A stretch of 64,000 nucleotides of DNA from a phage: the NCBI GenBank assembly GCA_024673055.1, contig GCA_024673055.1_4537.1; one strand, 5' to 3'. Made by a program: the position numbers and the translations under genes. Positions 10,601 to 62,853 of the stretch are shown piece after piece. Under the pieces are notes generated by a model. That model worked only from the letters and a program-made list of their open reading frames with translations. It was not told where the DNA came from and ran no database searches. Positions within the stretch are counted from its first letter, which is position 1, and each line of letters begins with the position of its first letter.

Positions 10601-10640
10601 GGTTTGTTTCAAGTGTGTGAGGTTGAACGCTGAATAAAAG

Positions 10641-10670
10641 AAAGGAGCCATTTGGCTCCTTTTCTTATTT
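10641..10670. terminator. Bidirectional rho-independent terminator at the convergence of plus and minus gene blocks
   Basis: Perfect 9-bp inverted repeat AAAGGAGCC / GGCTCCTTT with a 4-nt loop, flanked by A-run and T-run; lies between the stops of convergent genes. Confidence 0.6.
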
Positions 10671-22604: not shown

Positions 22605-22846
22605 TAGTCATCCTCTTTGGTAGATTGTGATCTGCCCCAGCGTAAATCAATAAGATTTTTCATGAGGCGAGAAGGAGTTATCATGAAAACAAAAGCCCAA
22701 CCCATCCATTCAGGAATTTCTTTTTCTATTCCTAAAAAGATAAACATGCCTGTCATAACCGACATGCCTACAGCGTTCCAGACTTTCGTAGAACTGACTT
22801 TATTATCAGGATATGTACAGAACATACCTATTAAAAATTTTCTCAT
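22604..22846 (-). CDS. Small membrane protein (two predicted TM helices)
   Basis: Hydrophobic segments (VMTGMFIFLGI; WMGWAFVFMITP); start overlaps the adjacent gene. Confidence 0.4.
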   Translation of the reverse strand: MRKFLIGMFCTYPDNKVSSTKVWNAVGMSVMTGMFIFLGIEKEIPEWMGWAFVFMITPSRLMKNLIDLRWGRSQSTKEDD

Positions 22847-23151
22847 AGTGCGTTCCCATTACTTTTTAAATCACGAGATACAGCTAATTCCCCAAGGTCT
22901 ACAGAACCCGCTGAATGCACAAGTACAGCAGCACTAAGACTAATGGCAGTAATACCTGAGGCAATATCAGCAGGTAGGGAATACGCCCTTTGCGTCTCCT
23001 TATCATAGATAACCTTATACCCACCCAAATCCACACCAACTGAGAAGTAAACAACCTCAGATTGTTTGACTCCAAAGTAACGGGCTACTGCTTGTTTATT
23101 GGTTAAGATTCCGGTTGAACCTTTACCACCTTGGGAGAACATTTCGTTCAC
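22843..23151 (-). CDS. Hypothetical structural protein
   Basis: 102 aa ORF in the late operon. Confidence 0.4.
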   Translation of the reverse strand: MNEMFSQGGKGSTGILTNKQAVARYFGVKQSEVVYFSVGVDLGGYKVIYDKETQRAYSLPADIASGITAISLSAAVLVHSAGSVDLGELAVSRDLKSNGNAL

Positions 23152-23390
23152 AACAACCTCTTTGTTTTTCTAAGTAAGCCCCTCTTTGGAGGGGCTTGCA
23201 GTGGTAGTGACAACACTTTGAGTTAGTACGATAGTAACTAAAGACAAGATTAACCCTGCTACGATATGTTTTCATCATTTTATCACATGGCGATGAGATT
23301 CGCTTGCAGGACATAGTTTGTGTGAGTCGTAATGAAGTCCATGATGTCACATTTATAATTTCCCCGCCGAAGCGGGGTTATTGTTTGCTC

Positions 23391-25490: not shown

Positions 25491-25498
25491 TTTTACTC

Positions 25499-50315: not shown

Positions 50316-50394
50316 TGGAGGCGGGAATCGGATTCGAACCGATGATCTCCAGCATATGAAACTGGCGAGGACGACCAGACTCCTCTATCCCGCT
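50316..50394 (-). tRNA. tRNA-Met (anticodon CAT), CCA encoded
   Basis: Hand-folded cloverleaf: T-arm ATCGG-TTCGAAT-CCGAT, anticodon stem CCAGT/GCTGG with loop TTCATAT, D-stem GAGG/CCTC; the 1-72 pair is A-C (unpaired). Confidence 0.6.
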
Positions 50395-50400
50395 ATTATG

Positions 50401-50470
50401 TATCCCGTGCTGGATTCGAACCAGCATCACAATAAGTTGTGGAACTCTTATCCTGTAAGTCTAACGGGAA
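50401..50470 (-). tRNA. tRNA-like element with aberrant anticodon arm (possible pseudo-tRNA)
   Basis: Good T-arm (GCTGG-TTCGAAT-CCAGC) and near-complementary acceptor, but the anticodon region folds only as CACAA-CTTA-TTGTG (4-nt loop). Confidence 0.3.
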
Positions 50471-50472
50471 AC

Positions 50473-50546
50473 TGGTTGTTTCGACAAGAATCGAACTTGT
50501 GTCTCACGATTATCAGTCGTGGGTTCTACCATTGAACTACGAAACA
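50473..50546 (-). tRNA. tRNA-Ile (anticodon GAT), CCA encoded
   Basis: Acceptor TGTTTCG/CGAAACA, D-arm GTTC-AATGGTA-GAAC, anticodon stem CACGA/TCGTG with loop CTGATAA, T-arm ACAAG-TTCGATT-CTTGT. Confidence 0.7.
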
Positions 50547-50552
50547 TTTGAT

Positions 50553-50629
50553 TGGTCGGAATTGCAGGATTCGAACCTGCGACCCTACGCTCCCAAAGCG
50601 TATGCTCTACCAAACTGAGCTAAATTCCG
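50553..50629 (-). tRNA. tRNA-Pro (anticodon TGG), CCA encoded
   Basis: Acceptor CGGAATT/AATTCCG, D-arm GCTC...GAGC, anticodon stem TACGC/GCGTA with loop TTTGGGA, T-arm GCAGG-TTCGAAT-CCTGC. Confidence 0.7.
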
Positions 50630-50634
50630 TTATA

Positions 50635-50710
50635 TGGCTGGTCTGTCTGGATTTGAACCAAACCTACGACAGTCAAAGTGTCGTGTGCTACCGGACTACA
50701 CTACAAACCA
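50635..50710 (-). tRNA. tRNA-Gln (anticodon TTG), CCA encoded
   Basis: Acceptor TGGTTTG/CAGACCA (one GU pair), anticodon stem CGACA/TGTCG with loop CTTTGAC, T-arm TTTGG-TTCAAAT-CCAGA. Confidence 0.65.
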
Positions 50711-50808
50711 ATAAATCATTTAATGAAGGGCAACCAGAAGAGGTGTGAGAGAAGGAGAAAACCATGAGTAAAAGAGAAAGTTTTCTGGCAACCCTTTATT
50801 AAATAATT

Positions 50809-50882
50809 TGGAGCGTTCTACGAGGATCGAACTCGTGCCGCCGACTTGGAAGGACGGAATGCTACCGCTACACCAAGAACGC
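50809..50882 (-). tRNA. tRNA-Gly (anticodon TCC), CCA encoded
   Basis: Acceptor GCGTTCT/AGAACGC, anticodon loop CTTCCAA (stem has one U-U mismatch), T-arm ACGAG-TTCGATC-CTCGT. Confidence 0.6.
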
Positions 50883-50893
50883 CCTACATCTTT

Positions 50894-50923
50894 ACTATAC
50901 TACATTTTACTATTGGTTGTCAA
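50894..50923 (-). promoter_or_regulatory. Sigma70-like promoter (minus strand) for downstream tRNAs
   Basis: On the minus strand AACTATTGACAA, 18 bp, TATAGT, just upstream of tRNA-Gly. Confidence 0.5.
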
Positions 50924-51383
50924 TAGTTTTATTGAGTGGGACAGTGACGAGTATCCCGTTGGGTGACTAGCCCTACGTTCGGTAAGCTAACTTAAAATAA
51001 TACAAAACCAAAGTCAAATATTATTCTTCGTTGCTGTCGATGGGAGAGCCGCTTCTTCTTTTGCCCCATCCAACCCTACTCCGGTCAAGTTTCAGGTAAC
51101 TCTTTTTGTGATCAACACAATACTAAGAACACTGTCTTTCGAGCAGACCTTGTGCACAGGATACGACGATCAATCACAGTGCTCTTAATGTTGTGTTGTG
51201 AATACTAACCTCGGAACTCATTACCGCGTTTTGGCTCGACCTTACTACAGGTTAGTGAATGTCTTTCGTCCGCTTACATTCAATAAGTTTGCTTTCTTCA
51301 CAACGATAAGAACACTTAACAGAAGATAGGTCTGATTGCCTCGGATGATTTCTCAGTAGCCTAAATGTTCTTACCTGTTATGT

Positions 51384-51458
51384 TGGTGCTCCCACTCTGA
51401 ATCGAACAGAGATCCACGGATTACAAAACCGTTGTAATAGCCATTATACTATAGGAGC
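51384..51458 (-). tRNA. tRNA-Thr (anticodon TGT), CCA encoded
   Basis: Acceptor GCTCCTA/TGGGAGC, anticodon loop TTTGTAA (stem with one U-U mismatch), T-arm CTCTG-TTCGATT-CAGAG. Confidence 0.55.
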
Positions 51459-51464
51459 AAAGCT

Positions 51465-51541
51465 GGGACTCGGCAGGATTCGATACCTGCAATTTCAGAA
51501 GCCTCTTGGCGACTGGGGGTTTACCTTAACTCTACAAGTCC
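51465..51541 (-). tRNA. tRNA-like element, non-canonical (8-nt T-loop, no foldable anticodon arm)
   Basis: Acceptor GGACTTG/CGAGTCC and T-arm-like GCAGG-TATCGAAT-CCTGC, but no 5/7/5 anticodon arm could be found by hand. Confidence 0.3.
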
Positions 51542-51548
51542 ATAATTC

Positions 51549-51634
51549 TGGCGATGAGTATAGGATTTGAACCTATATCGTTCTTTCGAACACGGATTAA
51601 CAGTCCGCCGCTTAAACCATTCAGCCAACTCATC
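51549..51634 (-). tRNA. tRNA with anticodon GTT (Asn codons) on a long-variable-arm, Tyr-like body; CCA encoded
   Basis: Perfect acceptor GATGAGT/ACTCATC, anticodon arm GCGGA-CTGTTAA-TCCGT, 15-nt variable arm (GTTC-GAAA-GAAC), T-arm ATAGG-TTCAAAT-CCTAT; lies adjacent to tRNA-Tyr. Confidence 0.5.
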
Positions 51635-51640
51635 TTAATT

Positions 51641-51728
51641 TGGTGGTGAGTGATGGAGTCGAACCACCCGAATCGCAATGATAACAGATTTACAGTCTGC
51701 CCCGCTACCCCTACGGAATTAACTCACC
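51641..51728 (-). tRNA. tRNA-Tyr (anticodon GTA), type II, CCA encoded
   Basis: Acceptor GGTGAGT/ACTCACC, anticodon arm GCAGA-CTGTAAA-TCTGT, long variable arm, T-arm GGTGG-TTCGACT-CCATC. Confidence 0.65.
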
Positions 51729-51858
51729 TAAATACTAATATTTAAATTCTTTTTAAAATAGCCAGTGTTCACACCACTAACTATGAGTTATCGGTAAGAT
51801 GGTGGGGGCCATCTGCCGAAAGTTTACTCTATTAAAGTAAGCTATATTAAAAAGAACT

Positions 51859-51944
51859 TGGCGGTAGATGTAGGACTCGAACCTACATGCCGTTTCCGAC
51901 TACAGTTTAGCAAACTGTCGTGGCTACCATTTCACCAATCTACC
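51859..51944 (-). tRNA. tRNA-Ser (anticodon GCT), type II, CCA encoded
   Basis: Acceptor GGTAGAT/ATCTACC, anticodon arm ACAGT-TTGCTAA-ACTGT, long variable arm, T-arm GTAGG-TTCGAGT-CCTAC. Confidence 0.65.
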
Positions 51945-51948
51945 AATC

Positions 51949-52039
51949 TGGCGGAAGGAGGGAGAGTCGAACTCCCAAGGCTCTTTCAAGCTCGGCGGTT
52001 TTCAAGACCGTTTTCGTCGCCACGTCGATTTGCCCTTCC
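51949..52039 (-). tRNA. tRNA-Ser (anticodon TGA), type II, CCA encoded
   Basis: Acceptor GGAAGGG/TCCTTCC, anticodon loop CTTGAAA, long variable arm, T-arm GGGAG-TTCGACT-CTCCC. Confidence 0.55.
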
Positions 52040-52047
52040 ATACTTAT

Positions 52048-52077
52048 AATCTAACATAAAATAATGTTAGTTGTCAA
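52048..52077 (-). promoter_or_regulatory. Sigma70-like promoter (minus strand) inside the tRNA cluster
   Basis: On the minus strand AACTATTGACAA, 18 bp, TAGATT, upstream of tRNA-Ser(TGA). Confidence 0.45.
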
Positions 52078-52273
52078 TAGTTTTTTAAAACATTTTACCA
52101 TGAATGGTGACTCCACCAACCCCCGTTCTCAACGAACGGTGCTCTTCGAGCATTTATGTCTTCTAATATAACCGTGGCCTTTGTTTATAATGTCTGACAT
52201 ACTTGCCTCATTCTCTGCCACCATGATCAGTAGTGGGTTCAAATCACTTGAGCTAATTCATGTTAAAATGTTC

Positions 52274-52348
52274 TGGTGTCTTTACAAGGAATCGAACCTT
52301 GACTAAGAGTTTAGAAGACTCCTGTGCTATCCATTACACCATAAAGAC
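52274..52348 (-). tRNA. tRNA-Arg (anticodon TCT), CCA encoded
   Basis: Acceptor GTCTTTA/TAAAGAC, anticodon arm GGAGT-CTTCTAA-ACTCT, T-arm CAAGG-TTCGATT-CCTTG. Confidence 0.7.
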
Positions 52349-52350
52349 GT

Positions 52351-52425
52351 TGGTGGCCCTGGCTGGTTTCGATCCAGCTACCTATCGGTTATGAGCCGAC
52401 AGCTCTCCCATTGAGCTACAGGGCC
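52351..52425 (-). tRNA. tRNA with anticodon CAT (Met, or Ile if lysidine-modified), CCA encoded
   Basis: Acceptor GGCCCTG/CAGGGCC, D-arm GCTC-AATGGGA-GAGC, anticodon arm GTCGG-CTCATAA-CCGAT, T-arm GCTGG-ATCGAAA-CCAGC. Confidence 0.65.
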
Positions 52426-52630
52426 ATAAATGTGGTAACAGAGACGCTGACGATTGTAGAGAACCGCTACATTCTCTAAGACCAAGCCCAACTTTCAGCG
52501 TAAAAGTTCTTGAGCCGAGACTATTCCTTTTCCTCTTTGGTAGCTAACCTCTGAAGAAGTAGTCTCTAACACTACCGCAGTGCAAGCCCCTCTTAACAAA
52601 AGTCAACGACCCTGTTACCACACTTGATGA

Positions 52631-52664
52631 ACGTATCCTAACATATGAAGGATACGTTTGTCAA
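52631..52664 (-). promoter_or_regulatory. Sigma70-like promoter (minus strand) for the tRNA cluster, overlapped by a 9-bp perfect inverted repeat
   Basis: On the minus strand AACTATTGACAA, 18 bp, TAGGAT; palindrome ACGTATCCT-N9-AGGATACGT (52631-52657) covers the -10 and spacer. Confidence 0.5.
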
Positions 52665-52671
52665 TAGTTAT

Positions 52672-52986
52672 TTAAGCATATTCTGCTACTTCTTCACTAT
52701 CTTTCTTTTCCAGAAGAGCAACAACCAAAGCTTCTGCGTTAAAAGTATTAATTTCAAGATCCATCTCTCGCATCAGAGCCAAGAAATCAATAACTTTAAC
52801 ATCTTTAGTGATTACAATAGAAGTTGTACCATTGTTTTCAGATGTGTATTTTTCTGGATGGAAAAGAAAAACTGCATTGCCGTTACCATCTTCAAACACG
52901 TGTTTTTCTAATAGAGACATTGTTCCTCCTAATCTGTTAGTTGTTCGTCCTCTACCAAGTTTGACACGAGAACGTCTGTTATACAT
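52672..52986 (-). CDS. Hypothetical protein
   Basis: 104 aa ORF upstream of the tRNA promoter in the minus-strand block. Confidence 0.45.
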   Translation of the reverse strand: MYNRRSRVKLGRGRTTNRLGGTMSLLEKHVFEDGNGNAVFLFHPEKYTSENNGTTSIVITKDVKVIDFLALMREMDLEINTFNAEALVVALLEKKDSEEVAEYA

Positions 52987-53180
52987 TGATGCTGATAAAC
53001 CCTTTCGGGACTATCATCAAAAGCCAAACCTGTGCAAATAGAACAGAGGTCTGATTCCTTGATGACTCCATTTTTATCACGTCTGGAGTGGTTTGTCAAA
53101 TGCCTATTACAAGCACGGCACCTAAAATAAAAGCTATTTTGCATATATCCTTCGAACCCCAAATGGGGAGTGATCGGCAT
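52929..53180 (-). CDS. Hypothetical Cys-rich (zinc-ribbon-like) protein
   Basis: 83 aa with CRAC...CSIC pattern. Confidence 0.4.
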   Translation of the reverse strand: MPITPHLGFEGYMQNSFYFRCRACNRHLTNHSRRDKNGVIKESDLCSICTGLAFDDSPERVYQHQCITDVLVSNLVEDEQLTD

Positions 53181-53217
53181 CTCCTCACTTCTAGTTTAGC
53201 ACGAAGGATATCTTAAG

Positions 53218-53403
53218 TCAACTAGGAATAATTTTATCCTTTTTGGTTTCATAACCAGTCCAATCTAAATCCTCCCAGCCTTCATCATCGTCTAACACAT
53301 TGTCATCATCGTAAGATGCAATGTTATAAATAGAACGTGGATTACAAGACATACAATCTTTAATAGGCACATGATGCCATTTGCACGGATTCTCGCTAAT
53401 CAT
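53218..53403 (-). CDS. Hypothetical small protein
   Basis: 61 aa ORF; first gene of the minus-strand block, preceded by a GGAGGTG RBS. Confidence 0.4.
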   Translation of the reverse strand: MISENPCKWHHVPIKDCMSCNPRSIYNIASYDDDNVLDDDEGWEDLDWTGYETKKDKIIPS

Positions 53404-53430
53404 TGCACACCTCCATTCTTGTTAAGATGT

Positions 53431-53632
53431 TCCGTACTGTACTTCATACTGATCTATAGATCAAGTATTATTTATAATAATTTATTATTTTATTTTTAAT
53501 TGATAGAAGTTGATCTGTACGTACCAGTTCTGATACACTGTACCTGTTTGTTAGATCTAATAATTATTTATTATTAATATTTAATAATTATTAATCTAGT
53601 ACAGAGTACAGTACTTGAGTACAGAGTACTAC
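53431..53632. repeat. AT-rich divergent control region with clustered GATC/GTAC palindromes and direct repeats (origin or operator candidate)
   Basis: 14-bp palindrome TGATCTATAGATCA, GTACGTAC, inverted pair GTACTGTAC / GTACAGTAC about 170 bp apart, direct repeat AGTACAGAGTAC x2, long A/T runs; no ORF. Confidence 0.5.
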
Positions 53633-53884
53633 ATCAACAACCTAAAACCTTAACTCGCTGCGCTCGTTAATAGATTTCTAGGGTAGCATACTTCGAACAC
53701 AAAAGTCAAGAGTTTTATTAAAAATTATTTTCTGTGTGCAAAAACCTTGCTTAAACAGGTAGCAATAGTATAGCCTATAACATAAGCTTCATAAGAGGCT
53801 CGTAGAGCAAGTTCACTTACTAGGTAAGGTGATTTATCATCTTATATATAAAAAGTGCGTCAGAGACGCGTTTAGGAGGCTAGA

Positions 53885-54208
53885 ATGAGATTTACAAGAC
53901 AAGAGGTAGTTGTGCTGGACGAAGCAATGACAATGATCGTCTTTTACTATGAGGATATCTTCTGTGCAGCATATCATTTAAATGACATTCAGATTGAATG
54001 GCAGCAGATAGCATTCCTGTTGGACAAGAGTAATCATTTGGATGGTTTTGAGTATTTGGAGTGGGATGGTGCAAAGGAAGTTAAAATTGTAGGGTTAAAT
54101 CACGATCAGATTGTTGACATGCAATGTAAGTTGTGTCATTATCAGTTCTCAAACAAAGTCAAACTCGAAAGGCAATTGGAGGTGGTTAAAGATGATAGCA
54201 CTAATTAG
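53885..54208 (+). CDS. Hypothetical early protein
   Basis: 107 aa ORF after a TAGGAGG RBS; first plus-strand gene after the divergent region. Confidence 0.5.
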   Translation: MRFTRQEVVVLDEAMTMIVFYYEDIFCAAYHLNDIQIEWQQIAFLLDKSNHLDGFEYLEWDGAKEVKIVGLNHDQIVDMQCKLCHYQFSNKVKLERQLEVVKDDSTN

Positions 54209-54308
54209 TGAGAATCCAGTCCTGACAACAATTGTTCTGATTTTTGCCATGTGTGTGGTTCACGATATTCTGGTAAGTTATTTTGACAACAAAGGAGGTA
54301 AGAAATGA
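54192..54308 (+). CDS. Hypothetical small membrane protein (39 aa)
   Basis: Internal ATG with GGAGGTGG RBS in the track frame 54111..54308; single hydrophobic helix. Confidence 0.3.
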   Translation: MIALISENPVLTTIVLIFAMCVVHDILVSYFDNKGGKK

Positions 54309-54499
54309 AAGACGTTATTCAAATGGTATTCCGTGTAACTCTAGATGGTATACACGTTGTTAAAGGCACACAGAACTACACAGAAGCGAAAGAACACTTC
54401 TTAGAGTGGATTGATACACTGAAGACACAAGATGTGTCCTACAGCCGTGTTACGCTTACTGGCGACCATACCCCAATCATGGAGTACGTAAAGAAATGA
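54305..54499 (+). CDS. Hypothetical early protein
   Basis: 64 aa ORF, RBS AAGGAGG, overlapping stop/start. Confidence 0.5.
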   Translation: MKDVIQMVFRVTLDGIHVVKGTQNYTEAKEHFLEWIDTLKTQDVSYSRVTLTGDHTPIMEYVKK

Positions 54500-54735
54500 G
54501 CAACTATCCAATTACAGGCGTAACCTATTCTTGTGTAGCAAAAGGTGGTTTATATACAGTAGTGGAATTTCCAAAACCTGCCGGAATATCTAAAGTGTTT
54601 GATCCTGTGGTTATCTATGAAGATCTTAGAACAGGTCAACGTTACTGGAGATTTGTGAATGACTTTTTAGATCGTATGGAGGTAGTAAGTGGCGAAAACA
54701 CCGAAGAAGTTATCAAAGCCAAAGAACGTTACTAA
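54496..54735 (+). CDS. Hypothetical early protein
   Basis: 79 aa ORF in the operon. Confidence 0.5.
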   Translation: MSNYPITGVTYSCVAKGGLYTVVEFPKPAGISKVFDPVVIYEDLRTGQRYWRFVNDFLDRMEVVSGENTEEVIKAKERY

Positions 54736-55042
54736 GAAACCGAAAAACGAGGTTCTCAAAGTAGCTAAATCAGTTCCTAAGAAAGATAAATTTGATACGG
54801 AGGCATTCGTCTTTGACACACCAATCGAGAAGATTGAAGAAGCGTTGCAACGTCTTGAGGAGCAGGAGGCAGATCCAATGGCTGAACCACTCACGGCAGA
54901 CCAAATTTATTGGTTCGGATGGTGGACACTCAATCTTCCAGAAGCAAAAAGAAGAGGAATGACTTCAGTTCCTACTTGTGCAAAAGAAGCGGCTGTGTTA
55001 GGTTTGTATGAGAAATCTAAAAAGAGGAGCAAAAAGAAATGA
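54689..55042 (+). CDS. Hypothetical Lys-rich protein (possible nucleic-acid binding)
   Basis: GTG start after GGAGGT; N-terminus highly basic (KTPKKLSKPKNVTKKPK). Confidence 0.45.
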   Translation: MAKTPKKLSKPKNVTKKPKNEVLKVAKSVPKKDKFDTEAFVFDTPIEKIEEALQRLEEQEADPMAEPLTADQIYWFGWWTLNLPEAKRRGMTSVPTCAKEAAVLGLYEKSKKRSKKK

Positions 55043-55320
55043 TCAAGACTTTTCTGAAGTGTGTAAAAGCAACAGATAATGAGTGGTACTCTGGATTATT
55101 CACTGCTGGCAAGAAATACGAGATCCTCAACGGGACAGGCAAGAAGTTTTCTCTCGTTGTAAACGATGAAGGCACGAAGCAAATGGTATTTGCTGAAAGT
55201 TCTGTTTATGGTATCTTTGAAGTAGTGCAAGAAGGCTCTCCAATGATTCTGGAGTATCATGGCACTAATAAACCATATACTGCTATGGATGTTATCAACA
55301 ACAAGAGGAATGCAAAATGA
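55039..55320 (+). CDS. Hypothetical early protein
   Basis: 93 aa ORF. Confidence 0.5.
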   Translation: MIKTFLKCVKATDNEWYSGLFTAGKKYEILNGTGKKFSLVVNDEGTKQMVFAESSVYGIFEVVQEGSPMILEYHGTNKPYTAMDVINNKRNAK

Positions 55321-55499
55321 TTTTACTCTATTCCGGTAAGGCAAAATACATGCAAGGTGTTAAACGTGTAGAGGTTACTAAGACAGTAACAATCGGGAAA
55401 TCTTTTATCGTTTATTATTTCCTTGTTAATGGGAAGGAGTATGCTGTAGCAAAGACCTTGGTTGATAAGGGTAAAACGTGGAAAGTGGAGGCACTATGA
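55317..55499 (+). CDS. Hypothetical early protein
   Basis: 60 aa ORF with overlapping stop/start. Confidence 0.45.
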   Translation: MILLYSGKAKYMQGVKRVEVTKTVTIGKSFIVYYFLVNGKEYAVAKTLVDKGKTWKVEAL

Positions 55500-55702
55500 T
55501 CCCTGTAGCTGGGTGGGTGGTATTGGCAACACTTAATGGGAATGTTACTGTGGAGACTAAAACCATCTTCAAAGCACCAGAAGATTGCTATAACTCCTTG
55601 GTAACTTGGCCTCGTGATGAGGATGATAAGGCAGAGTATCAGTGTTTTTACATTGAGGGTAAGCCTGTAGAATTTGAGGTTAAAGTGAAGGAGGAAAAAT
55701 GA
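55496..55702 (+). CDS. Hypothetical early protein
   Basis: ATG at 55496 (ATGA overlap with upstream stop) after GTGGAGG; in-frame part of track ORF 55478..55702. Confidence 0.45.
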   Translation: MIPVAGWVVLATLNGNVTVETKTIFKAPEDCYNSLVTWPRDEDDKAEYQCFYIEGKPVEFEVKVKEEK

Positions 55703-56169
55703 GAATTAAAGTAACTAAAGCTTACGATGATAACCCGAAGTTTATCTCTTTGAATAAGAGTTATGGTGTCGAAAACGGCGATGAGTTCGAGGTTATCGAT
55801 CTTTTTGAGGATCACGGGTATATTGTCAAAGCCCCAATCACAGAGCAGGCTATTATCATCTTACGCACAGAGGCTGTTGAGGTAGGTTCTGATGAACCTC
55901 AATATGACAGCCCATACATGACAGAGTGGATTGTGGCTGTAGATGTTGGAGGCAGGGTTTCTGTATTGAAAGCTCCTAATCTCCATCCTAGTTTTACAGA
56001 GAACGGTTTGACAGCTTTGGATTATGGGTTGCCAGAAGATGTTGAGAATACACCGCCAGGTATGTACCGTTGGATTTGCTCTTTCCATGAAGAGAAGGAT
56101 TGGGAATCAGGACTTGTTGATGATTGGCATTTTGAAGTGGAAAGTTCTTTTTTGATCATGCCAGCTTAA
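55699..56169 (+). CDS. Hypothetical early protein
   Basis: 156 aa ORF. Confidence 0.5.
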   Translation: MRIKVTKAYDDNPKFISLNKSYGVENGDEFEVIDLFEDHGYIVKAPITEQAIIILRTEAVEVGSDEPQYDSPYMTEWIVAVDVGGRVSVLKAPNLHPSFTENGLTALDYGLPEDVENTPPGMYRWICSFHEEKDWESGLVDDWHFEVESSFLIMPA

Positions 56170-56179
56170 AGGAGGCTAT

Positions 56180-56524
56180 ATGAAAGTTTGGATAGATGAT
56201 ATGCGGAACCCAGCCGACTATGGACAGGAAGATGCAATTTGGTTTAAAACGTCACAAGAAGCTATGGCCTTTCTCAATGATCCTGCTAAACTGTATCGAA
56301 GAGTAACCGAGTGGTCTTTTGACAATGATTTAGGTATGGAGTCAGACCAAGATGGGTATGATGTTTTCCTGCACCTGGAAGAACTTCTGGCGTTTGGTAA
56401 ACCTTGCTTTGGTTCACCTACCATTTTCGTGCATACTTCTAATCCCGCCGCTGGGGATAAATTCATGCTTGCAAAAGAATCCATGCTGCGTTATGGTATT
56501 AAAATGATTCGTGTGCACTACTAA
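56180..56524 (+). CDS. Hypothetical early protein
   Basis: 114 aa ORF after an AAAGGAGG RBS. Confidence 0.5.
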   Translation: MKVWIDDMRNPADYGQEDAIWFKTSQEAMAFLNDPAKLYRRVTEWSFDNDLGMESDQDGYDVFLHLEELLAFGKPCFGSPTIFVHTSNPAAGDKFMLAKESMLRYGIKMIRVHY

Positions 56525-56533
56525 GGAGAAAAC

Positions 56534-56677
56534 ATGCATCATTCGGTTTGGTCGGAACAAGAAGAGGACGAAGGTTACTTTATCTACCGAGAAGAAGAGG
56601 ATTGGCCCGACACAAGTAATGATCTTTTACTTCCAGACACTAGTTTTTTCGAGGATAACTTAAGAGAGGAGGATTAG
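56534..56677 (+). CDS. Hypothetical small highly acidic protein (47 aa)
   Basis: Not in the track (below 60 aa); RBS AAGGAGAAAAC; about 40% Asp/Glu. Confidence 0.35.
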   Translation: MHHSVWSEQEEDEGYFIYREEEDWPDTSNDLLLPDTSFFEDNLREED

Positions 56678-56683
56678 GAAACA

Positions 56684-57040
56684 ATGAGTGGTATTGAAAA
56701 CAACATTTGTTACCAACCTCTTACCTGGATTGGTGAGGGTCATTATGCGCAACGTGTTATCGTCTGTGCTGCGAATAAGTATATTTTGAATAATGGTGAA
56801 GAGTTAATTATTCCTTGTGTTCGACATGCAAATCCTGTACTATATGCACAGTTAAGCGTGTTGAAAGAAGCAGGTGTAATCAACAAAACTTTGTGCACAC
56901 CAGATAATCAAGGCTTTATCGATCAGTATTACAATTGGTGGAGTCGTGCGGATGCTTACATCATCGCGGAAAATGCTGACCAGATCGACCATGAGCGTAA
57001 TGGTCACGACCATGAATTATTTAGCGAGGGATTATACTAA
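56684..57040 (+). CDS. Hypothetical protein
   Basis: 118 aa ORF immediately upstream of the RNA repair cassette. Confidence 0.5.
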   Translation: MSGIENNICYQPLTWIGEGHYAQRVIVCAANKYILNNGEELIIPCVRHANPVLYAQLSVLKEAGVINKTLCTPDNQGFIDQYYNWWSRADAYIIAENADQIDHERNGHDHELFSEGLY

Positions 57041-57591
57041 TGTTTATTACAAGCGATTTGCATTTTATGCATAAACGTATTCGAGAGTTTGCTCCTGAAT
57101 ATCGTCCGTGGGAAGATATGGACCACATGACAGAAGCCTTGATCGAAGCATGGAACAAATGTGCTACTACTCCTGGTGTTAAGATGTGGCATTTGGGCGA
57201 CTTCTGTTTCGGAACTGAAGAAGATACCCGTAAAATTGCTTCCCGTCTCCAAGGAGATATCACCTACTGTGTTGGGAACCATGACTACAGCAAACACCGA
57301 GAAGTGCTTGCAGAGTATGGAGAAGTGGTGTATTATGACGAAGTGAAATATCAGAAGCTGTTCTTCGTCTTAAGCCATTACCCTATGGCCTCCTGGAATA
57401 AACAAGGTCGTGGATCAATCATGCTACACGGGCATTCCCACGGATCTTTCCCTGATGAAGCTTATGGTAAAATGTTAGATGTGGGTTGGGATGCACACGG
57501 AAAAATCTTGCATTTTGATGAGATAATTTCTATGATGAGTAAACGAGATATCGTGACTGTAGACCATCACAAAATAATCAAAGGAGAATAA
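57040..57591 (+). CDS. Calcineurin-like metallophosphoesterase (candidate RNA 3'-end healing phosphatase)
   Basis: Motifs DxH (TSDLHF), GD (HLGDFCFG), GNHD (CVGNHDYS) and GHxH (LHGHSHG) in canonical order. Confidence 0.7.
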   Translation: MFITSDLHFMHKRIREFAPEYRPWEDMDHMTEALIEAWNKCATTPGVKMWHLGDFCFGTEEDTRKIASRLQGDITYCVGNHDYSKHREVLAEYGEVVYYDEVKYQKLFFVLSHYPMASWNKQGRGSIMLHGHSHGSFPDEAYGKMLDVGWDAHGKILHFDEIISMMSKRDIVTVDHHKIIKGE

Positions 57592-57592
57592 T

Positions 57593-58525
57593 GTGGCTAA
57601 ATTTAATTGCGACGATTTGGTTGAAAAAGGTTTAGTTCATAAGAAAACATATAAAGAAGGAGAGTATTCTGGTCTATCTGTTCTTAAGTATAAGAACAAA
57701 GTTTTCTGGGATAACTTATGGAGCATTGATTCTCGTCTTCTAGAATGTCGCGGAATCGTTGTTGATGCTGATGACAATGTTGTTATTTGGCCTTTCACTA
57801 AGATTTTTAATCGTTTTGAGAATGGCACAGATCTACCAGCGGATGAACTTGTAGATGTGGTTCGTAAAGTAAATGGTTTTATGGCCTCTGTAGGTGTATA
57901 TAAAGGTCAACTTATTGTATCGACAACAGGAAGCCTTGAATCAGATTTTGCAAGTATTGCAAAGAATCATATTGTTTCAGAGTGTGATGACATAGAACAT
58001 TTCATCAAATGGACAGAGAGTGCAAAAGCAACTTTCCTTTTTGAAATCTGTGATCCTTCTGATCCGCATATTGTCGAAGAAGAACCAGGTGCATACTTAA
58101 TTGGTGCCAGAATTCAAAATCCTGATGGGACAAGTTTTATGTTACCTGAAGGTGCTCTTGATGGAATTGCTTCTGTCACCAAATTTAAGCGTCCTGAAGT
58201 TCATCCAATGGTTAAGTTTTCAGATGTTGTTGAAATGTCTAAACATTGTAAACACGAAGGGTTTGTAGTTCGTGAAACAAACTATCCGTTCAACTTACTT
58301 TTAAAAATTAAATCACCACACTATCTTACTAAGAAGTTTCTTATGCGCGGTGGAGATAAAAAGTGGGATCTGATTTGGGATAATCCAAAAAATGCCAAAC
58401 AAATGGTTGACGAAGAATATTACGCTTTGTTAGAATGGATTCGAAATAATTTTACGAAGATTCAATGGGCTGCTTTAAATCAGCAAGAGCGACGTGAAAA
58501 AATCGAAAACTTTTTTGGAGGATAA
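57593..58525 (+). CDS. Putative RNA ligase (covalent nucleotidyltransferase superfamily)
   Basis: Motif I-like KVNG (VRKVNGFMASV), motif IV EGFVVR, motif V LLKIKSPHY; flanked by phosphoesterase and polynucleotide kinase genes. Confidence 0.6.
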   Translation: MAKFNCDDLVEKGLVHKKTYKEGEYSGLSVLKYKNKVFWDNLWSIDSRLLECRGIVVDADDNVVIWPFTKIFNRFENGTDLPADELVDVVRKVNGFMASVGVYKGQLIVSTTGSLESDFASIAKNHIVSECDDIEHFIKWTESAKATFLFEICDPSDPHIVEEEPGAYLIGARIQNPDGTSFMLPEGALDGIASVTKFKRPEVHPMVKFSDVVEMSKHCKHEGFVVRETNYPFNLLLKIKSPHYLTKKFLMRGGDKKWDLIWDNPKNAKQMVDEEYYALLEWIRNNFTKIQWAALNQQERREKIENFFGG

Positions 58526-58930
58526 ATGAAACAACTTATCATTTTACGTGGTGTTTCAGGTGCTGGTAAATCTACAGTAGCAGAAATTATTTCTGAAGGT
58601 TATTGGCCTATCTGTGAGGCAGATCAATATCATTACACAGAGAGTGGTGTTTACGATTGGAAGCCAGAAAATGTAGGTAAAGCACACGCATGGTGTCAGG
58701 GTATTGTTCGTGATGCTATGGCATCTAATCTTAACAAGATTATTGTTTCTAATACTTCAACCACAGAGAAAGAACTTAAACCTTATCTAGCTCTTGCTGA
58801 AGAGTTTGGTTATCAAGTTATCTCTTTAGTTGTTGAAAATAGGCACGGTAATGATTCAATTCACGAGGTTCCACAATATATCCGTGATCAGCAAGAGAAA
58901 CGTCTTCGTGGTTCACTTAAACTTCAATAA
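58526..58930 (+). CDS. Polynucleotide 5'-kinase (T4 Pnk kinase-domain-like)
   Basis: P-loop LIILRGVSGAGKST; overall pattern parallels the T4 Pnk kinase domain (IIVSNTST; LAEEFGYQV). Confidence 0.7.
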   Translation: MKQLIILRGVSGAGKSTVAEIISEGYWPICEADQYHYTESGVYDWKPENVGKAHAWCQGIVRDAMASNLNKIIVSNTSTTEKELKPYLALAEEFGYQVISLVVENRHGNDSIHEVPQYIRDQQEKRLRGSLKLQ

Positions 58931-58939
58931 GGAGAAATA

Positions 58940-59266
58940 ATGCAGATTTATACAGATGATCGTAAATATGAGACAATTTTAGATGAAGATACTGGACGAA
59001 TTACCGTTCTCCGTCACGGTGAAGAGTGGCGTGATGAAACGGGAGACAATTATATCTTGTCTCTGATTCATCTTATTGAACAAATGCGTGATGATTACGC
59101 TGAACTGCATTATGAAAATGAGGCTAATAAAGTAAAATTTGAAAATGAATTAGAAGAGAAAGAATCCGAAATGGTATATCTAAAAGAAGAGATCTCCCGT
59201 TTGGAGGAAGAGATTGATGCTCTTCAAGAAGAGATTTACGAACTCAACAACGAACTTAACGCTTAA
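58940..59266 (+). CDS. Hypothetical coiled-coil protein
   Basis: 108 aa; C-terminal heptad-like region (YLKEEISRLEEEIDALQEEIYELNNEL). Confidence 0.5.
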   Translation: MQIYTDDRKYETILDEDTGRITVLRHGEEWRDETGDNYILSLIHLIEQMRDDYAELHYENEANKVKFENELEEKESEMVYLKEEISRLEEEIDALQEEIYELNNELNA

Positions 59267-59275
59267 GGAGGGATT

Positions 59276-59467
59276 ATGAAAAAAGATATCGTTGTTGTTG
59301 GTTGGCTGACTTGCCCTTGTGGTAGTAATGACATAACTGTAAACACAGAGGGTGATAAAAATTATTTATTCTACGGGGATAAAATCACTTGCAATACCTG
59401 CGGACGTGTTGGTATTATAGAAACCGATGATTGTTGTGCTTTTGAATCTTGGGATGAAGAAGAATGA
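59276..59467 (+). CDS. Hypothetical zinc-ribbon protein
   Basis: 63 aa with CPCG...CNTCG Cys pairs. Confidence 0.45.
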   Translation: MKKDIVVVGWLTCPCGSNDITVNTEGDKNYLFYGDKITCNTCGRVGIIETDDCCAFESWDEEE

Positions 59468-59685
59468 GTACTGCATTTTATGTTCGTAGCGGAGACGAGG
59501 ATTTTTTAGCTACTTTTGATGACGGTGATCTTGAAGATATGTATGAAGATATGCTTGACTATGCCAAAGGGCAAGGTTTCACAAGCATTGATTACATGTT
59601 GGCAACATCTACAACGTTACTCGACGCAGATTTGGATGAAGTGTGTAACAGATTGAAAATTTCAGTTTTTAAATGGGAGGACTAA
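59464..59685 (+). CDS. Hypothetical acidic protein
   Basis: 73 aa, Asp/Glu-rich. Confidence 0.45.
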   Translation: MSTAFYVRSGDEDFLATFDDGDLEDMYEDMLDYAKGQGFTSIDYMLATSTTLLDADLDEVCNRLKISVFKWED

Positions 59686-60800
59686 TGCAACAAACAAATC
59701 AAACGCTGTATGGTAAAGATTCAAAAGGAAAACTTAAACAGTGGACAGTGTATACAGATGGTGCAGTTGTTACTGTAGCTCATGGAAGAGTAGGTGGAAA
59801 AATCACAGAAAAATCTTATACAGCAGAAGCAAAAAACATTGGTCGCTCCAATGAAACAACACCGGAAGAACAAGCTGAACTTGAAGCTTTTGCCAAATGG
59901 ACAAAACAGTTAAAGAATGGTTATTATAAAACAAAAGAAGAAGCTGAAAACCATGTTCCTTCCACACCAATGAAATGCCAGGATTATAAAGATTATCCTG
60001 AAAGGGTTGTGTTCCCTGGTTATGCACAATACAAACTGAACGGGTTACGTTCTATGATTAACATGAAAGGAGAGTGTTTATCAAAAGCTGGGGAAGTGTA
60101 TAACCTGCCACCTCATTGGAAAGGTATTCCAAACTTTATTAGTGAAGTTGTTGGTCATCCTCTTGATGGTGAAGTGTTTGCTGGGTTAGGTGTCCTTAGT
60201 CTGCAACAAATTAACAGCGCCTGGAAGAAGCATAATGCAAATACACCTTTGCTGAATTATTACGTATACGATATTCCAGTTCCAGATCTACCGTTTGAAA
60301 AACGTGTTGATGTTCTTGCTGCTCTTAAGGCAGTAGTTGAAGATTATGGTCTTAATGAGCTTATTTGTGTAGTTCATACAGAGTATATTGAAAACCAAGA
60401 ACAGTTTGATGCTTTCTATGAAAAAGCTTTACTTGAGAAAGCTGAAGGTGTAGTATATCGTAATGCTCACGGAGTTTACGAATTTGATAAACGTTCTTAT
60501 GACGTTATTAAACGTAAGCCTCGCCATACCCTTGAAGTTAAAGTAACAAATTCAAAAAGTGATAAAAATGGCGATGGAGTGTTGACAGGTGAGATGGAAA
60601 ATGGTAAAGTAGTCGAATTCTTAATGCGTAAAGATGCTCATGAGACTATCAATTATCGTAAAGCAGAGAATGCTTCTACCTTGATTAATCAGTTTGTTGA
60701 AATAGAGTATGAAGAATTTTCAGATGAAGGTATTCCAACAAAACCTGTTGGTGTTCGTATTCGAGAAATGATCCCAGGCACTTGGGAACCAGCAGAATAA
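59685..60800 (+). CDS. ATP-dependent DNA ligase
   Basis: Motif I KLNGLR, motif III PLDGEVFAG, motif IIIa YVYDI, motif IV EGVVYR, motif V VIKRKP; ATG at 59685 after GGGAGGA. Confidence 0.75.
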   Translation: MQQTNQTLYGKDSKGKLKQWTVYTDGAVVTVAHGRVGGKITEKSYTAEAKNIGRSNETTPEEQAELEAFAKWTKQLKNGYYKTKEEAENHVPSTPMKCQDYKDYPERVVFPGYAQYKLNGLRSMINMKGECLSKAGEVYNLPPHWKGIPNFISEVVGHPLDGEVFAGLGVLSLQQINSAWKKHNANTPLLNYYVYDIPVPDLPFEKRVDVLAALKAVVEDYGLNELICVVHTEYIENQEQFDAFYEKALLEKAEGVVYRNAHGVYEFDKRSYDVIKRKPRHTLEVKVTNSKSDKNGDGVLTGEMENGKVVEFLMRKDAHETINYRKAENASTLINQFVEIEYEEFSDEGIPTKPVGVRIREMIPGTWEPAE

Positions 60801-60809
60801 GGAGGAAAA

Positions 60810-61004
60810 ATGTTCTTAGCCATTTTAATCGTTTTCAGTGTGCTTTCTTTTTATTGTATGAATGCTTCGGAAAGCTTTCCTAAGAATTCAAAGAAAAGAA
60901 CCGTATGTATTGCGATTGATTCATGTATGTCTGGAGTTGGGTATGCGGTAGTTTCTTGTTTCTTAGCTTATCATTGTGCAAAATACCTGGAGGCATTTTT
61001 ATGA
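60810..61004 (+). CDS. Hypothetical small membrane protein
   Basis: 64 aa; N-terminal hydrophobic helix (FLAILIVFSVLSFY). Confidence 0.4.
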   Translation: MFLAILIVFSVLSFYCMNASESFPKNSKKRTVCIAIDSCMSGVGYAVVSCFLAYHCAKYLEAFL

Positions 61005-61183
61005 TAATTTTAGCAACAATTCTTATGATGTTGATAGCCATTGCTATTGTAATTCTGGCATCTTTTCCGGCGGATAAATGGTATTTCAATATTCCACGTA
61101 TGCTTGTTTTCGGTTTCGCAGGAATTTACATGGGTGAGACTGTAGTAAATATTAGCAACTTTCTAGAAAGCTATTTTAAATAA
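61001..61183 (+). CDS. Hypothetical small membrane protein (two TM helices)
   Basis: ATG at 61001 after CCTGGAGG; hydrophobic segments IILATILMMLIAIAIVILA and LVFGFAGIYMG. Confidence 0.4.
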   Translation: MIILATILMMLIAIAIVILASFPADKWYFNIPRMLVFGFAGIYMGETVVNISNFLESYFK

Positions 61184-61192
61184 GGAGTTATA

Positions 61193-61918
61193 ATGATCGA
61201 GAATTTTTTTAAAGATATTAAATTCGATACTGAATTTTTCAAAAATGCAGCAAAGCACGTAATTGATTGGAATGCCAAAGCACGAGGTGGTGAACAACCT
61301 GAATTCACTCAAGAGTTATTTATGTCCCAAATCGGGTTCGTTCGTGAAGAGCTTAAAGAGTATGAAACAGCCGCGAAAGTAAACGATCATGTAGAACTCT
61401 TGGATGCAGCAGCGGATATTTTTGTAGTATCTAGTTATCTTACTTACATGTTCTTTGGTGAAGAACATACGCTGAATTTCTTGGACTATGCTGTAGGCGA
61501 TGTTTTTACTCCAACTGTGTATACCGATTTCGATGCTTTGGAACAAACATTTACAGAGCCAGTTCAAATGGCGCTAATGGCTGCTGGTATTATGCGTATG
61601 TCTCGTGACACTCTGATCCGTTCAAAATATCCAGAAAAGAAAGTTATTAAAGAGGTATTGAAAAGTAATGATTCCAAGTATCCAACTAAACAACAGTTGC
61701 TGAAAACTTGGAAAACTTCAGATATCGATTCAGCCATTGCACAAGAATGCGCTGCAATTGAAGAACGAAATGCCAATCGTCCAGAAGGGGCATACACTGG
61801 TGTTCATGCCGTTTATAATGAAAAACAGAAAGTGTATGTGTTCTTTGATGATAAAGGTAAGATCATGAAGTGGTCAGGTTTCATTAAACCTAATATCGCA
61901 GGTATTATTAACAAGTAA
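61193..61918 (+). CDS. Hypothetical protein, possibly MazG-like NTP pyrophosphohydrolase
   Basis: Glu-rich helical motif (VREELKEYETAAKVNDHVELLDAAADIF) resembling the MazG EExxE...D core. Weak inference. Confidence 0.35.
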   Translation: MIENFFKDIKFDTEFFKNAAKHVIDWNAKARGGEQPEFTQELFMSQIGFVREELKEYETAAKVNDHVELLDAAADIFVVSSYLTYMFFGEEHTLNFLDYAVGDVFTPTVYTDFDALEQTFTEPVQMALMAAGIMRMSRDTLIRSKYPEKKVIKEVLKSNDSKYPTKQQLLKTWKTSDIDSAIAQECAAIEERNANRPEGAYTGVHAVYNEKQKVYVFFDDKGKIMKWSGFIKPNIAGIINK

Positions 61919-61974
61919 TGTTGTAAGCAGCCCTTTACGGGCGGTAATGTGAGATGTATTAAATAGGAGGAAAC

Positions 61975-62853
61975 ATGTTTGTAAAATCTTTTAAATCTGC
62001 TCTGCCTATGGTTGTTGGTGACGATGCTTCTGTAGCATCCCTTAACAGCATTACAGATATTCCTCTGGAATTTGTAACAGCAGAAGGCTCCCAGTCACAC
62101 ACTATCGGTCTTGTTCGTTTCGAAGATGACTCTAAATTTGTAAAAGAGTTTTCAGATCTTGAACTGCTTAATGTAGGTCAATCTGTGAAGAAGGTAGATA
62201 AAAAGAAAGTTAAACGTATTCTGAATGAACGTCTAGAAGAAATGCGTCAGGACATGGAGAGCGAAGGTAAAGAGTTTTATGTCGATAAAGAAGTAGTCAA
62301 AGCAATGAAGGAAGATATTGAATTTGCACTATTGCCTGAAACAGAACCTGAAGATTTCTTTAACTATGTTGTCTTGGATAAAACTACGAATCTTCTTTAT
62401 GTTCTTAATGGAAGTAAAAAGGTCGCAGAAGAGATTACTTCTTTCCTCCGTTCCGTTCTGGGGACTTTCCCTTCGGTAGGTTTTAGTGTGCACGAAGAAG
62501 CTATTGTAAAAGGTTTTGGTGAATTGCTGGAGAATCATGAAGCAGATCGTATTACTCTCGGAAATTATATCAAAATGGAGGATAGCGAGGGCGTTGTTGT
62601 TTGGAGTAAAGAATCCCTATACGAGTCTAAAGCTGTCGAACTAAAAGAGGATGGTAAAGATGTGGTTGCAATCGGTCTTGAATATGACGGTGTTGTAGAT
62701 TTTGTAGTGGATAAAGAGTTTAAACTTTCTAAACTACGTTTTCCGAAATATTTTGCAGACGAAGAAGGTAGTATTGAAGCTTCAGTCCTTCTGTGCTTCA
62801 ATGAGATTCGAGGTCTGATGGAAGATTTAACCAAAGCAACAATCCTTAAATAA
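61975..62853 (+). CDS. Hypothetical protein
   Basis: 292 aa ORF after an AGGAGGAAAC RBS. Confidence 0.5.
   Translation: MFVKSFKSALPMVVGDDASVASLNSITDIPLEFVTAEGSQSHTIGLVRFEDDSKFVKEFSDLELLNVGQSVKKVDKKKVKRILNERLEEMRQDMESEGKEFYVDKEVVKAMKEDIEFALLPETEPEDFFNYVVLDKTTNLLYVLNGSKKVAEEITSFLRSVLGTFPSVGFSVHEEAIVKGFGELLENHEADRITLGNYIKMEDSEGVVVWSKESLYESKAVELKEDGKDVVAIGLEYDGVVDFVVDKEFKLSKLRFPKYFADEEGSIEASVLLCFNEIRGLMEDLTKATILK

Follow-up and report, generated by a model that had tools for sequence, protein, structure and literature searches.

Three contiguous plus-strand genes at positions 57040-58930 of a 64,000-nucleotide stretch of phage DNA (GenBank assembly GCA_024673055.1, contig GCA_024673055.1_4537.1; hereafter the window, meaning the whole stretch analysed) encode a metallophosphoesterase, an RNA ligase and a P-loop kinase, and together probably form a phage heal-and-seal RNA repair unit. 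By analogy with the Pnkp/Rnl1 pathway of phage T4, which acts against PrrC, its substrate would probably be tRNA cut by host defence nucleases. This reading is carried by the family and fold assignments of the proteins, their intact catalytic residues, the conserved linkage of the genes and the domain fusions of the kinase. The stand-alone, binuclear phosphoesterase (57040-57591, plus strand, 183 residues, ATG start) belongs to an aq_1665-like clade; the ATP-dependent ligase (57593-58525, plus strand, 310 residues, GTG start) is assigned to the Rnl1 clade of T4 RnlA and fungal Trl1; and the stand-alone kinase (58526-58930, plus strand, 134 residues, ATG start) is a predicted polynucleotide 5'-OH kinase. 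An initial annotation of the stretch had proposed this three-gene cassette from its motifs, and the open reading frames (ORFs), their order and every quoted motif were recovered in the translations; Pfam searches placed RNA_lig_T4_1, AAA_33 and Metallophos all above cut-off.

The genes are tightly packed. The stop codon of the upstream ORF overlaps the phosphoesterase ATG by one base (TAATG), a single base separates phosphoesterase from ligase and none separates ligase from kinase; a GGAG-type ribosome-binding site is present at each of the latter two junctions. Judged from this packing, the three genes are predicted to be transcribed together and translationally coupled. A terminator scan returned 11 candidates against 6.2 ± 2.7, an excess that is not interpretable, with no candidate between any of the three genes; a promoter scan gave a count no different from that of shuffled sequence, and the PADLOC defence models gave no meaningful match.

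The cassette is 100% identical to that of Escherichia phage Mt1B1_P17 and phages WPEC1/2/4/6, and about 26 Phapecoctavirus records match it at 99% identity or more; the window is itself Phapecoctavirus DNA. Across its whole length it shares 97.5-99.5% identity with Mt1B1_P17, with several indels, and is therefore a close relative of that phage and not necessarily the same isolate; because of the indels, the conversion of Mt1B1_P17 record coordinates to the window is valid only locally. Sister Phapecoctavirus records in GenBank label the three products 'phosphoesterase/metallophosphatase', 'RNA ligase (and tail fiber attachment catalyst)' and 'ATPase' or 'putative polynucleotide kinase'.

The RNA ligase

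The 310-residue translation contains K92VNG95, HE222G223FVVR and LLK238IK240SPHY, matches Pfam RNA_lig_T4_1 (PF09511) at 56.8 bits (cut-off 28.3, E = 3.8e-15) with the profile fully covered (1-227), and matches the PHROG family phrog_562, 'RNA ligase' (3.4e-70). As a single sequence it gave no match in the PDB; PDB profile searches for both ligase and kinase used profiles built from nine phage homologues, and the best match of the ligase profile was T4 Rnl1 (E = 6.3e-16), across the nucleotidyltransferase domain. In that alignment, the Rnl1-specific N-terminal elements Arg53 and Lys70/Phe72 correspond to Arg54 and Lys75/Phe77 of T4 Rnl1, motif I Lys92/Gly95 to Lys99/Gly102, motif III Glu151 to Glu159, motif IV Glu222/Gly223 to Glu227/Gly228, and motif V Lys238/Lys240 to Lys240/Lys242, and every one of these residues of the window's ligase is invariant across 61 homologues. 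We take Arg54, Lys75, Phe77 and Lys119 of T4 Rnl1 to be essential from mutagenesis; the position of T4 Lys119 is occupied by a Thr (Thr112) that is invariant in this family.

When the predicted fold was compared with solved ligases, T4 Rnl1 was the closest (23.3, 266 residues aligned), followed by the ligase domains of fungal Trl1 (21.7-22.1), Rnl3-type ligases (~16) and Rnl2 (14), with DNA ligases at 11 or below and the ligase of bacterial Pnkp at 8.0. The closeness to T4 Rnl1 and Trl1 argues for an RNA ligase of the tRNA-ligase clade. Both profile and predicted fold place the protein in the T4 Rnl1/fungal Trl1 clade; it is an RNA ligase, as the initial annotation had supposed, and not a member of a non-ligase family. 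Its modelled C-terminus consists of six short helices (residues 242-307, ~66 residues), in which Glu274/Glu275 and Arg300 are invariant; in T4 Rnl1, an all-helical C-terminal domain of ~120 residues confers the preference for tRNA.

The kinase

The P-loop of the 134-residue protein reads G9VSGAGK15S16T, with Gly12, Gly14 and Lys15 invariant. It matches Pfam AAA_33 at 41.1 bits (cut-off 27, E = 2.7e-10) and, among PHROG families, phrog_2071 'ATPase' (2e-56) and phrog_505 'polynucleotide kinase' (7.9e-8). A single-sequence PDB search returned P-loop noise only; the profile search returned T4 Pnk as best match over the full length (3.1e-7), followed by the L-seryl-tRNA(Sec) kinase PSTK (3.1e-6), Pnkp1 (3.6e-6) and CthPnk (9.2e-5). 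These best solved relatives all phosphorylate RNA, and Pnkp1 comes from the Pnkp1-Rnl-Hen1 repair complex. Asp33, aligned with the general base Asp35 of T4 Pnk, and Thr77, aligned with T4 Thr86, which anchors the first phosphodiester, are both invariant. The protein has no HAD/DxDxT phosphatase domain and its 120 closest homologues are all 82-145 residues long; the separation of a candidate healing phosphatase from the kinase, unlike in T4 PnkP, was correctly read in the initial annotation.

The strongest functional evidence for the predicted role of the kinase comes from domain fusions. Of 13,127 relatives recovered by an exhaustive profile search, the best 150 included a Rnl1-type ligase followed by the kinase (P0486; 444 residues, equal to 310 plus 134), the kinase followed by a Rnl1-type ligase (P0443), a truncated ligase followed by the kinase (P0381), three HD-kinase proteins built like HD-Pnk, a characterised end-healing enzyme (P0401, P0457 and P0501), and two kinase modules joined to a CNPase (P0509). 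In the window, ligase and kinase lie in the same frame without a gap, mirroring the order of P0486. The assignment as a divergent stand-alone polynucleotide kinase is well supported by these sequence comparisons.

The phosphoesterase

The 183-residue protein carries the motifs SD6LH8, G53D54, G79N80H81D and GH132SH134. Its score against Pfam Metallophos (PF00149), 24.9 bits, lies just over the cut-off of 21.5 (E = 3.1e-5), and it matches phrog_547 'phosphoesterase' at 6.5e-56. The metal and phosphate ligands Asp6, His8, Asp54, Asn80, His81, His113, His132 and His134 are invariant in 65 sequences, and the structural model (predicted local distance difference test score, pLDDT, 95.3) confirms a calcineurin-like fold. 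The nearest structure is aq_1665 of Aquifex aeolicus (PDB 1xm7), a structural-genomics protein with no assigned function, which therefore tells nothing about the substrate. That the phosphoesterase heals 2',3'-cyclic-phosphate or 3'-phosphate ends is argued from gene linkage only, and is the weakest link of the proposed pathway.

Conservation of the gene trio

Linkage was sampled in the ligase neighbourhoods of eight distantly related phages and in metagenomic contigs. Homologues of phosphoesterase, ligase and kinase lie within ~2.5 kb of one another in all eight phages, in varying order and orientation: Proteus phage Mydo and E. coli phage HdK5 (both Vequintavirinae), Pseudomonas phage PAK_P2 (Pakpunavirus), Ralstonia phage RSP15 (filed in its record under Ackermannviridae), Vibrio phage Pontus (Demerecviridae), Aeromonas phage 2L372X (Plateaulakevirus), Pseudomonas phage phiPsa300 (Otagovirus) and Acinetobacter phage Aci01-1 (Saclayvirus). 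A metagenomic phage contig (L018), in which kinase, ligase and phosphoesterase occupy overlapping frames, provides a ninth case. Identity between the locus proteins of Mydo and HdK5 and their counterparts in the window is 35-75%. The nucleic-acid context that the initial annotation had given to the phosphoesterase is thus borne out by a linkage to ligase and kinase that is conserved across distant phages.

The initial annotation's description of the arrangement as less common among phages was overstated, since 728 of 50,697 phage records contain a match to the ligase and 625 a match to the kinase. By host genus, ligase and kinase counts run in parallel (Escherichia 199/198, Pseudomonas 177/173, Klebsiella 36/36, Acinetobacter 24/24). 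The phosphoesterase family extends further, to phages of Staphylococcus, Enterococcus, Listeria and Bacillus and to many more Vibrio phages; in Listeria phage P100 it lies ~1 kb from an annotated 'RNA ligase' and 3.5 kb from an annotated 'tRNA splicing ligase'. From this distribution and these neighbourhoods, ligase and kinase emerge as a tight unit with the phosphoesterase as a frequent, non-exclusive partner. The cassette is widely conserved and already annotated in GenBank, and its type of neighbourhood was published in 2022 (PMC9503650); as a locus it is ordinary and not new.

Proposed mechanism and alternative explanations

From the T4 precedent of Pnkp and Rnl1 against PrrC we infer the enzymatic activities, the substrate of the phosphoesterase, the tRNA target and the triggering nuclease. 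A host ribonuclease, which on this analogy would be an anticodon nuclease cutting tRNA, would leave fragments ending in a 2',3'-cyclic phosphate and a 5'-OH. The kinase would transfer a phosphate from a nucleoside triphosphate to the 5'-OH, with Asp33 as general base and Lys15 in the P-loop, and the two-metal phosphoesterase would convert the cyclic phosphate to a 3'-OH, possibly after or together with a cREC protein encoded nearby. The Rnl1-type ligase would then adenylate itself on Lys92, pass the AMP to the 5'-phosphate and seal the break.

Several observations pull the other way. The ligase scores only 24.1 bits against the NCBIfam equivalog for T4 RnlA (TIGR02308; cut-off 242.25), and is by its sequence a distinct subfamily and no RnlA equivalog; its C-terminal part is only about half as long as the C-terminal domain of T4 Rnl1. 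Phage, bacterial and baculovirus RNA-repair kinases share an Asp-x-x-Arg motif, whose Asp serves as general base and whose Arg contacts the first phosphodiester (PMC3902929), and the window's kinase reads D33-Q-Y-H36, with His where T4 and Cth Pnk carry the essential Arg. At least 90% of close relatives also have His here, and the residue varies among distant ones. In its best solved relatives, T4 Pnk and other RNA 5'-kinases, the kinase is T4 Pnk-like, as the initial annotation has it, and it departs from T4 Pnk at this residue. The phosphoesterase family occurs in 1,410 of the 50,697 records, about twice as many as kinase or ligase, and no ligase was found near it in Vibrio phage D386, Staphylococcus phage P108 or Streptomyces phage Stigma; nor was a fusion to a kinase or ligase found among its best 120 relatives. 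A literature search on phAPEC8-type RNA ligases and on the biochemistry of the cassette found no activity measurements. Finally, a gene for an ATP-dependent DNA ligase (59673-60800, plus strand, 375 residues) lies 0.75 kb downstream of the cassette, and homologues of it accompany the cassettes of Mydo, HdK5, PAK_P2 and phiPsa300.

The breadth of the phosphoesterase family, which stands alone in several phage groups, gives some weight to an explanation that we regard as unlikely and nevertheless the most serious of the alternatives, namely that ligase and kinase by themselves are the RNA repair pair and that the phosphoesterase is a general counter-defence enzyme acting on small phosphoesters such as ADP-ribose cyclic phosphate, cyclic-nucleotide immune signals or nucleotides. 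The 3' ends would then be healed by cREC or by another enzyme elsewhere in the genome, and the related reference genome does encode a lambda-type NinI-like phosphatase. The structural neighbours of the phosphoesterase include the nucleotide and lipid-nucleotide hydrolases LpxH, YfcE and MJ0936, and in one metagenome-assembled contig (L020) the phosphoesterase gene sits between Adps-like and NAMPT-like genes of the type used to salvage nicotinamide adenine dinucleotide (NAD+), 4 kb from a separate repair fusion of 787 residues. Iyer et al. likewise do not choose between the two roles for the calcineurin-like enzyme (PMC9503650). Against it, linkage to ligase and kinase persists in eight of eight phages and one metagenomic contig despite shuffled gene order, and the reading frames overlap or abut in both the window and L018; moreover, the phosphatase associated with the NAD+ reconstitution operon NARP1 has been shown experimentally to be a Macro-domain protein and not a member of this phosphoesterase family, and Adps and Namat genes are absent from the window's lineage. 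The neighbouring DNA ligase, together with a weak match of the phosphoesterase to the NCBIfam ligase-associated PdeM (E = 0.0034, far under cut-off) and the use of DNA as well as RNA by T4 Pnkp and HD-Pnk, would suit a system in which kinase and phosphoesterase heal 5'-OH and 3'-phosphate ends of DNA for that ligase. We consider this very improbable: the gene between the two healing enzymes encodes a Rnl1/Trl1-clade RNA ligase and not a DNA ligase, the kinase family is fused to Rnl1-type RNA ligases in both orders and its phyletic pattern follows that of the RNA ligase, three small genes intervene before the DNA ligase, and no DNA ligase was detected in the stretches of ~4-5 kb on each side of the RSP15, Pontus and Aci01-1 cassettes.

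Hardly any credence attaches to the idea that the 310-residue protein is mainly a tail-fibre attachment factor with unrelated neighbours. It derives from the product name 'RNA ligase and tail fiber protein attachment catalyst', which is used by both PHROG and GenBank and was transferred from T4 (gp63), but the plus-strand block around the gene encodes nucleic-acid enzymes and the minus-strand structural genes lie across the tRNA cluster, all ligase catalytic residues are invariant, and such a role offers no rationale for the linkage and fusion to the kinase. A variant that would keep RNA repair as the purpose of the cassette, and that we regard as rather improbable, has a yeast-like instead of a T4-like route at its core. 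Here, cREC would open the 2',3'-cyclic phosphate to a 2'-phosphate, the Trl1-like ligase would seal the break with the 2'-phosphate retained at the junction, a phage sirtuin, unlinked in this lineage, would strip that phosphate with NAD+ as Tpt1 does, and the metallophosphoesterase and a Poa1p-like Macro protein would clear the ADP-ribose cyclic-phosphate by-products. The Mt1B1_P17 reference genome, which has a Sir2 gene and an Adpp-like Macro protein and no Adps/Namat NAD+ reconstitution genes, is consistent with this route, and the sirtuin-based idea was raised earlier without tests (PMC9503650). If true, it would provide the first biochemical roles for aq_1665-like phosphoesterases and cREC, and make the sirtuin an RNA 2'-phosphotransferase. 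We continue to favour the T4-like heal-and-seal pathway, in which the phosphoesterase takes part in end healing.

Relation to known repair systems

Compared with the T4 pathway, the window's kinase is stand-alone and a two-metal phosphoesterase replaces the HAD/DxDxT domain; beyond the His in the Asp-x-x-Arg position of T4 Pnk, and the shorter C-terminus and low RnlA equivalog score relative to T4 Rnl1, the genes differ in being adjacent. To our knowledge, those for T4 Pnkp and Rnl1 are not. The Pnkp of the bacterial Pnkp-Hen1 system (Clostridium thermocellum Pnkp) likewise combines a kinase, a lambda-phosphatase-like binuclear metallophosphoesterase and a ligase, but does so in a single polypeptide, whereas the window encodes three separate proteins, of which phosphoesterase and ligase come from other clades; no methyltransferase is annotated within ~9 kb either side of the cassette, although no search was aimed at Hen1. 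The HD-Pnk cluster of Runella slithyformis also joins a healing kinase and 2',3'-phosphoesterase to an adjacent ligase gene in overlapping ORFs, and HD-kinase fusions exist among the relatives of the window's kinase; in the window, however, the phosphoesterase is an unfused metallophosphoesterase, and the Runella cluster adds Tpt1 and a methyltransferase-HIT protein. Fungal Trl1 unites ligase, kinase and cyclic phosphodiesterase, the last of the 2H type and leaving a 2'-phosphate that is removed by Tpt1. The window's system resembles that of T4 in its predicted function and bacterial Pnkp in its composition, and is a member of neither.

The window's locus belongs, without an adjacent sirtuin, to the sirtuin-linked neighbourhood type of V5/Mydo-type phages described by Iyer, Burroughs, Anantharaman and Aravind in 2022, which comprises a T4-like tRNA ligase, cREC, a 'nucleotide kinase', MazG and a calcineurin-like phosphoesterase, and was read as a system for cyclic-phosphate RNA-end clean-up and ligation (PMC9503650). 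All five families are present in the window at 56180-61918, homologous to genes of Mydo and HdK5. The fifth of these loci, in order along the strand, encodes a MazG-type pyrophosphohydrolase (61193-61918, plus strand, 241 residues; PRA-PH 28.1 bits, phrog_671 3.1e-27), with homologues at both the Mydo and HdK5 loci. The phosphoesterase, 'occasional' in the published account (PMC9503650), was present at every ligase locus examined here. Unlike the published neighbourhood, the window has no sirtuin in or near the cassette: a scan of plus-strand ORFs from 53885 to 62853 gave no Sir2 match, and in Mt1B1_P17 the orthologue, 56% identical to that of Mydo, lies at record positions 130637-131452, ~28 kb from the cassette and beyond the window.

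A further difference is that cREC lies upstream of the phosphoesterase, not between ligase and kinase. This gene, missing from the initial annotation, is found 0.5 kb upstream of the cassette (56180-56524, plus strand, 114 residues; PF20274 cREC_REC, 62.4 bits, E = 6.7e-17). Its homologues in Mydo and HdK5, 57% and 52% identical, share with it the segments WxDDxR, DNDLG and HTSNP, and are located between ligase and kinase in Mydo and after the ligase in HdK5. The receiver-like cREC domain has been predicted by the Aravind group to process or resolve cyclic phosphates (PMC7824862, PMC9503650), and we consider cREC a probable accessory of the cassette.

Biological relevance

Nucleases that cleave tRNA, among them PrrC, RloC, retron-linked nucleases, PARIS and the collateral cleavage of Cas13, are a growing theme of phage-host conflict, and phage countermeasures beyond T4 Pnkp/Rnl1 and substitute tRNAs are barely characterised. 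Sequenced phages that carry a cassette of this type number at least about 600; their hosts are Escherichia, Klebsiella, Pseudomonas, Vibrio, Acinetobacter and Aeromonas, and many of the phages are in therapeutic use or have been proposed for it. If active, the cassette could decide whether a phage escapes RNA-targeting abortive-infection systems, and it offers a simple route to functions for two uncharacterised families, the aq_1665-like phosphoesterases and cREC. As the computational argument has already been published, the value now lies in experiments and not in discovery of the locus.

Neighbouring genes and other features of the window

The large tRNA cluster noted in the initial annotation is real: ARAGORN finds 10 tRNA genes on the minus strand at 50316-52425, 4.6 kb upstream of the cassette. 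HdK5 and RSP15 likewise have tRNA gene clusters, at 2.5-4 kb from their cassettes, and the window's cluster may be regarded as context and as a set of possible substrates. The annotation of Mt1B1_P17 lists 11 tRNAs, including two marked 'pseudo' (CAT and GTA), against the 10 found by ARAGORN in the window, and an indel separates the two genomes within the cluster, near window positions 51198-51366. The plus-strand block that includes the cassette begins at ~53885, just past the minus-strand tRNA cluster. The sign of the GC skew flips at ~52400-53900 and again at ~10000-12000, coinciding with switches of coding strand.

Immediately upstream of the phosphoesterase gene is a homologue of T4 arn.3 (56684-57040, plus strand, 118 residues), annotated as 'anti-restriction nuclease' and assigned to no Pfam family; arn.3 homologues occur in 1,526 phage records, mostly of T4-like phages, and T4 arn.3 is itself uncharacterised. 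We considered this gene as a fourth member of the cassette, its stop codon overlapping the phosphoesterase start, but rejected it on its absence from the other eight loci. Downstream of the cassette, the DNA ligase and MazG genes share the interval 59673-62853 with a plus-strand gene for a RdgC-like protein (292 residues).

In PAK_P2 (L004), Pontus (L006), phiPsa300 (L008) and Mydo (L002), the RNA-repair genes directly adjoin NAD+ reconstitution genes, encoding an Adps-like phosphoribosyl pyrophosphate synthetase, a Namat-like NAMPT and a Macro-type phosphatase, in an apparent counter-defence island. Such genes are often found beside that of the phosphoesterase, which was considered as a part of NARP1; we rejected this possibility given the Macro-domain identity of the NARP1 phosphatase and the absence of NARP1 from the window's lineage. 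The repair fusion on contig L020 (JAVQIP010037035.1; L020:3351-5714) joins a P-loop kinase, a lambda-type metallophosphoesterase and a Rnl1-type ligase, giving the domain order of bacterial Pnkp with a T4-type ligase; its gene stands beside a Band_7/SPFH gene and the NAD+-salvage-type genes, and the contig is phage-like.

Two further differences from Mt1B1_P17 lie outside the cassette region. The DNA polymerase I gene (ORF 4658-7990, plus strand) contains a 245-codon in-frame insertion at 6404-7138 that is absent from Mt1B1_P17; it begins with Cys (…SHY|CVPMDAQALT…), ends …ITGN|C and is intein-like in appearance, with no Pfam intein match at E = 1e-3. A segment of ~2.8 kb (22792-25603) likewise has no counterpart in Mt1B1_P17, and includes an ORF on the minus strand (23391-25490) for a 699-residue tail spike with a Tail_spike_N domain and a weak pectinesterase-like match, which is probably a swapped receptor-binding module.

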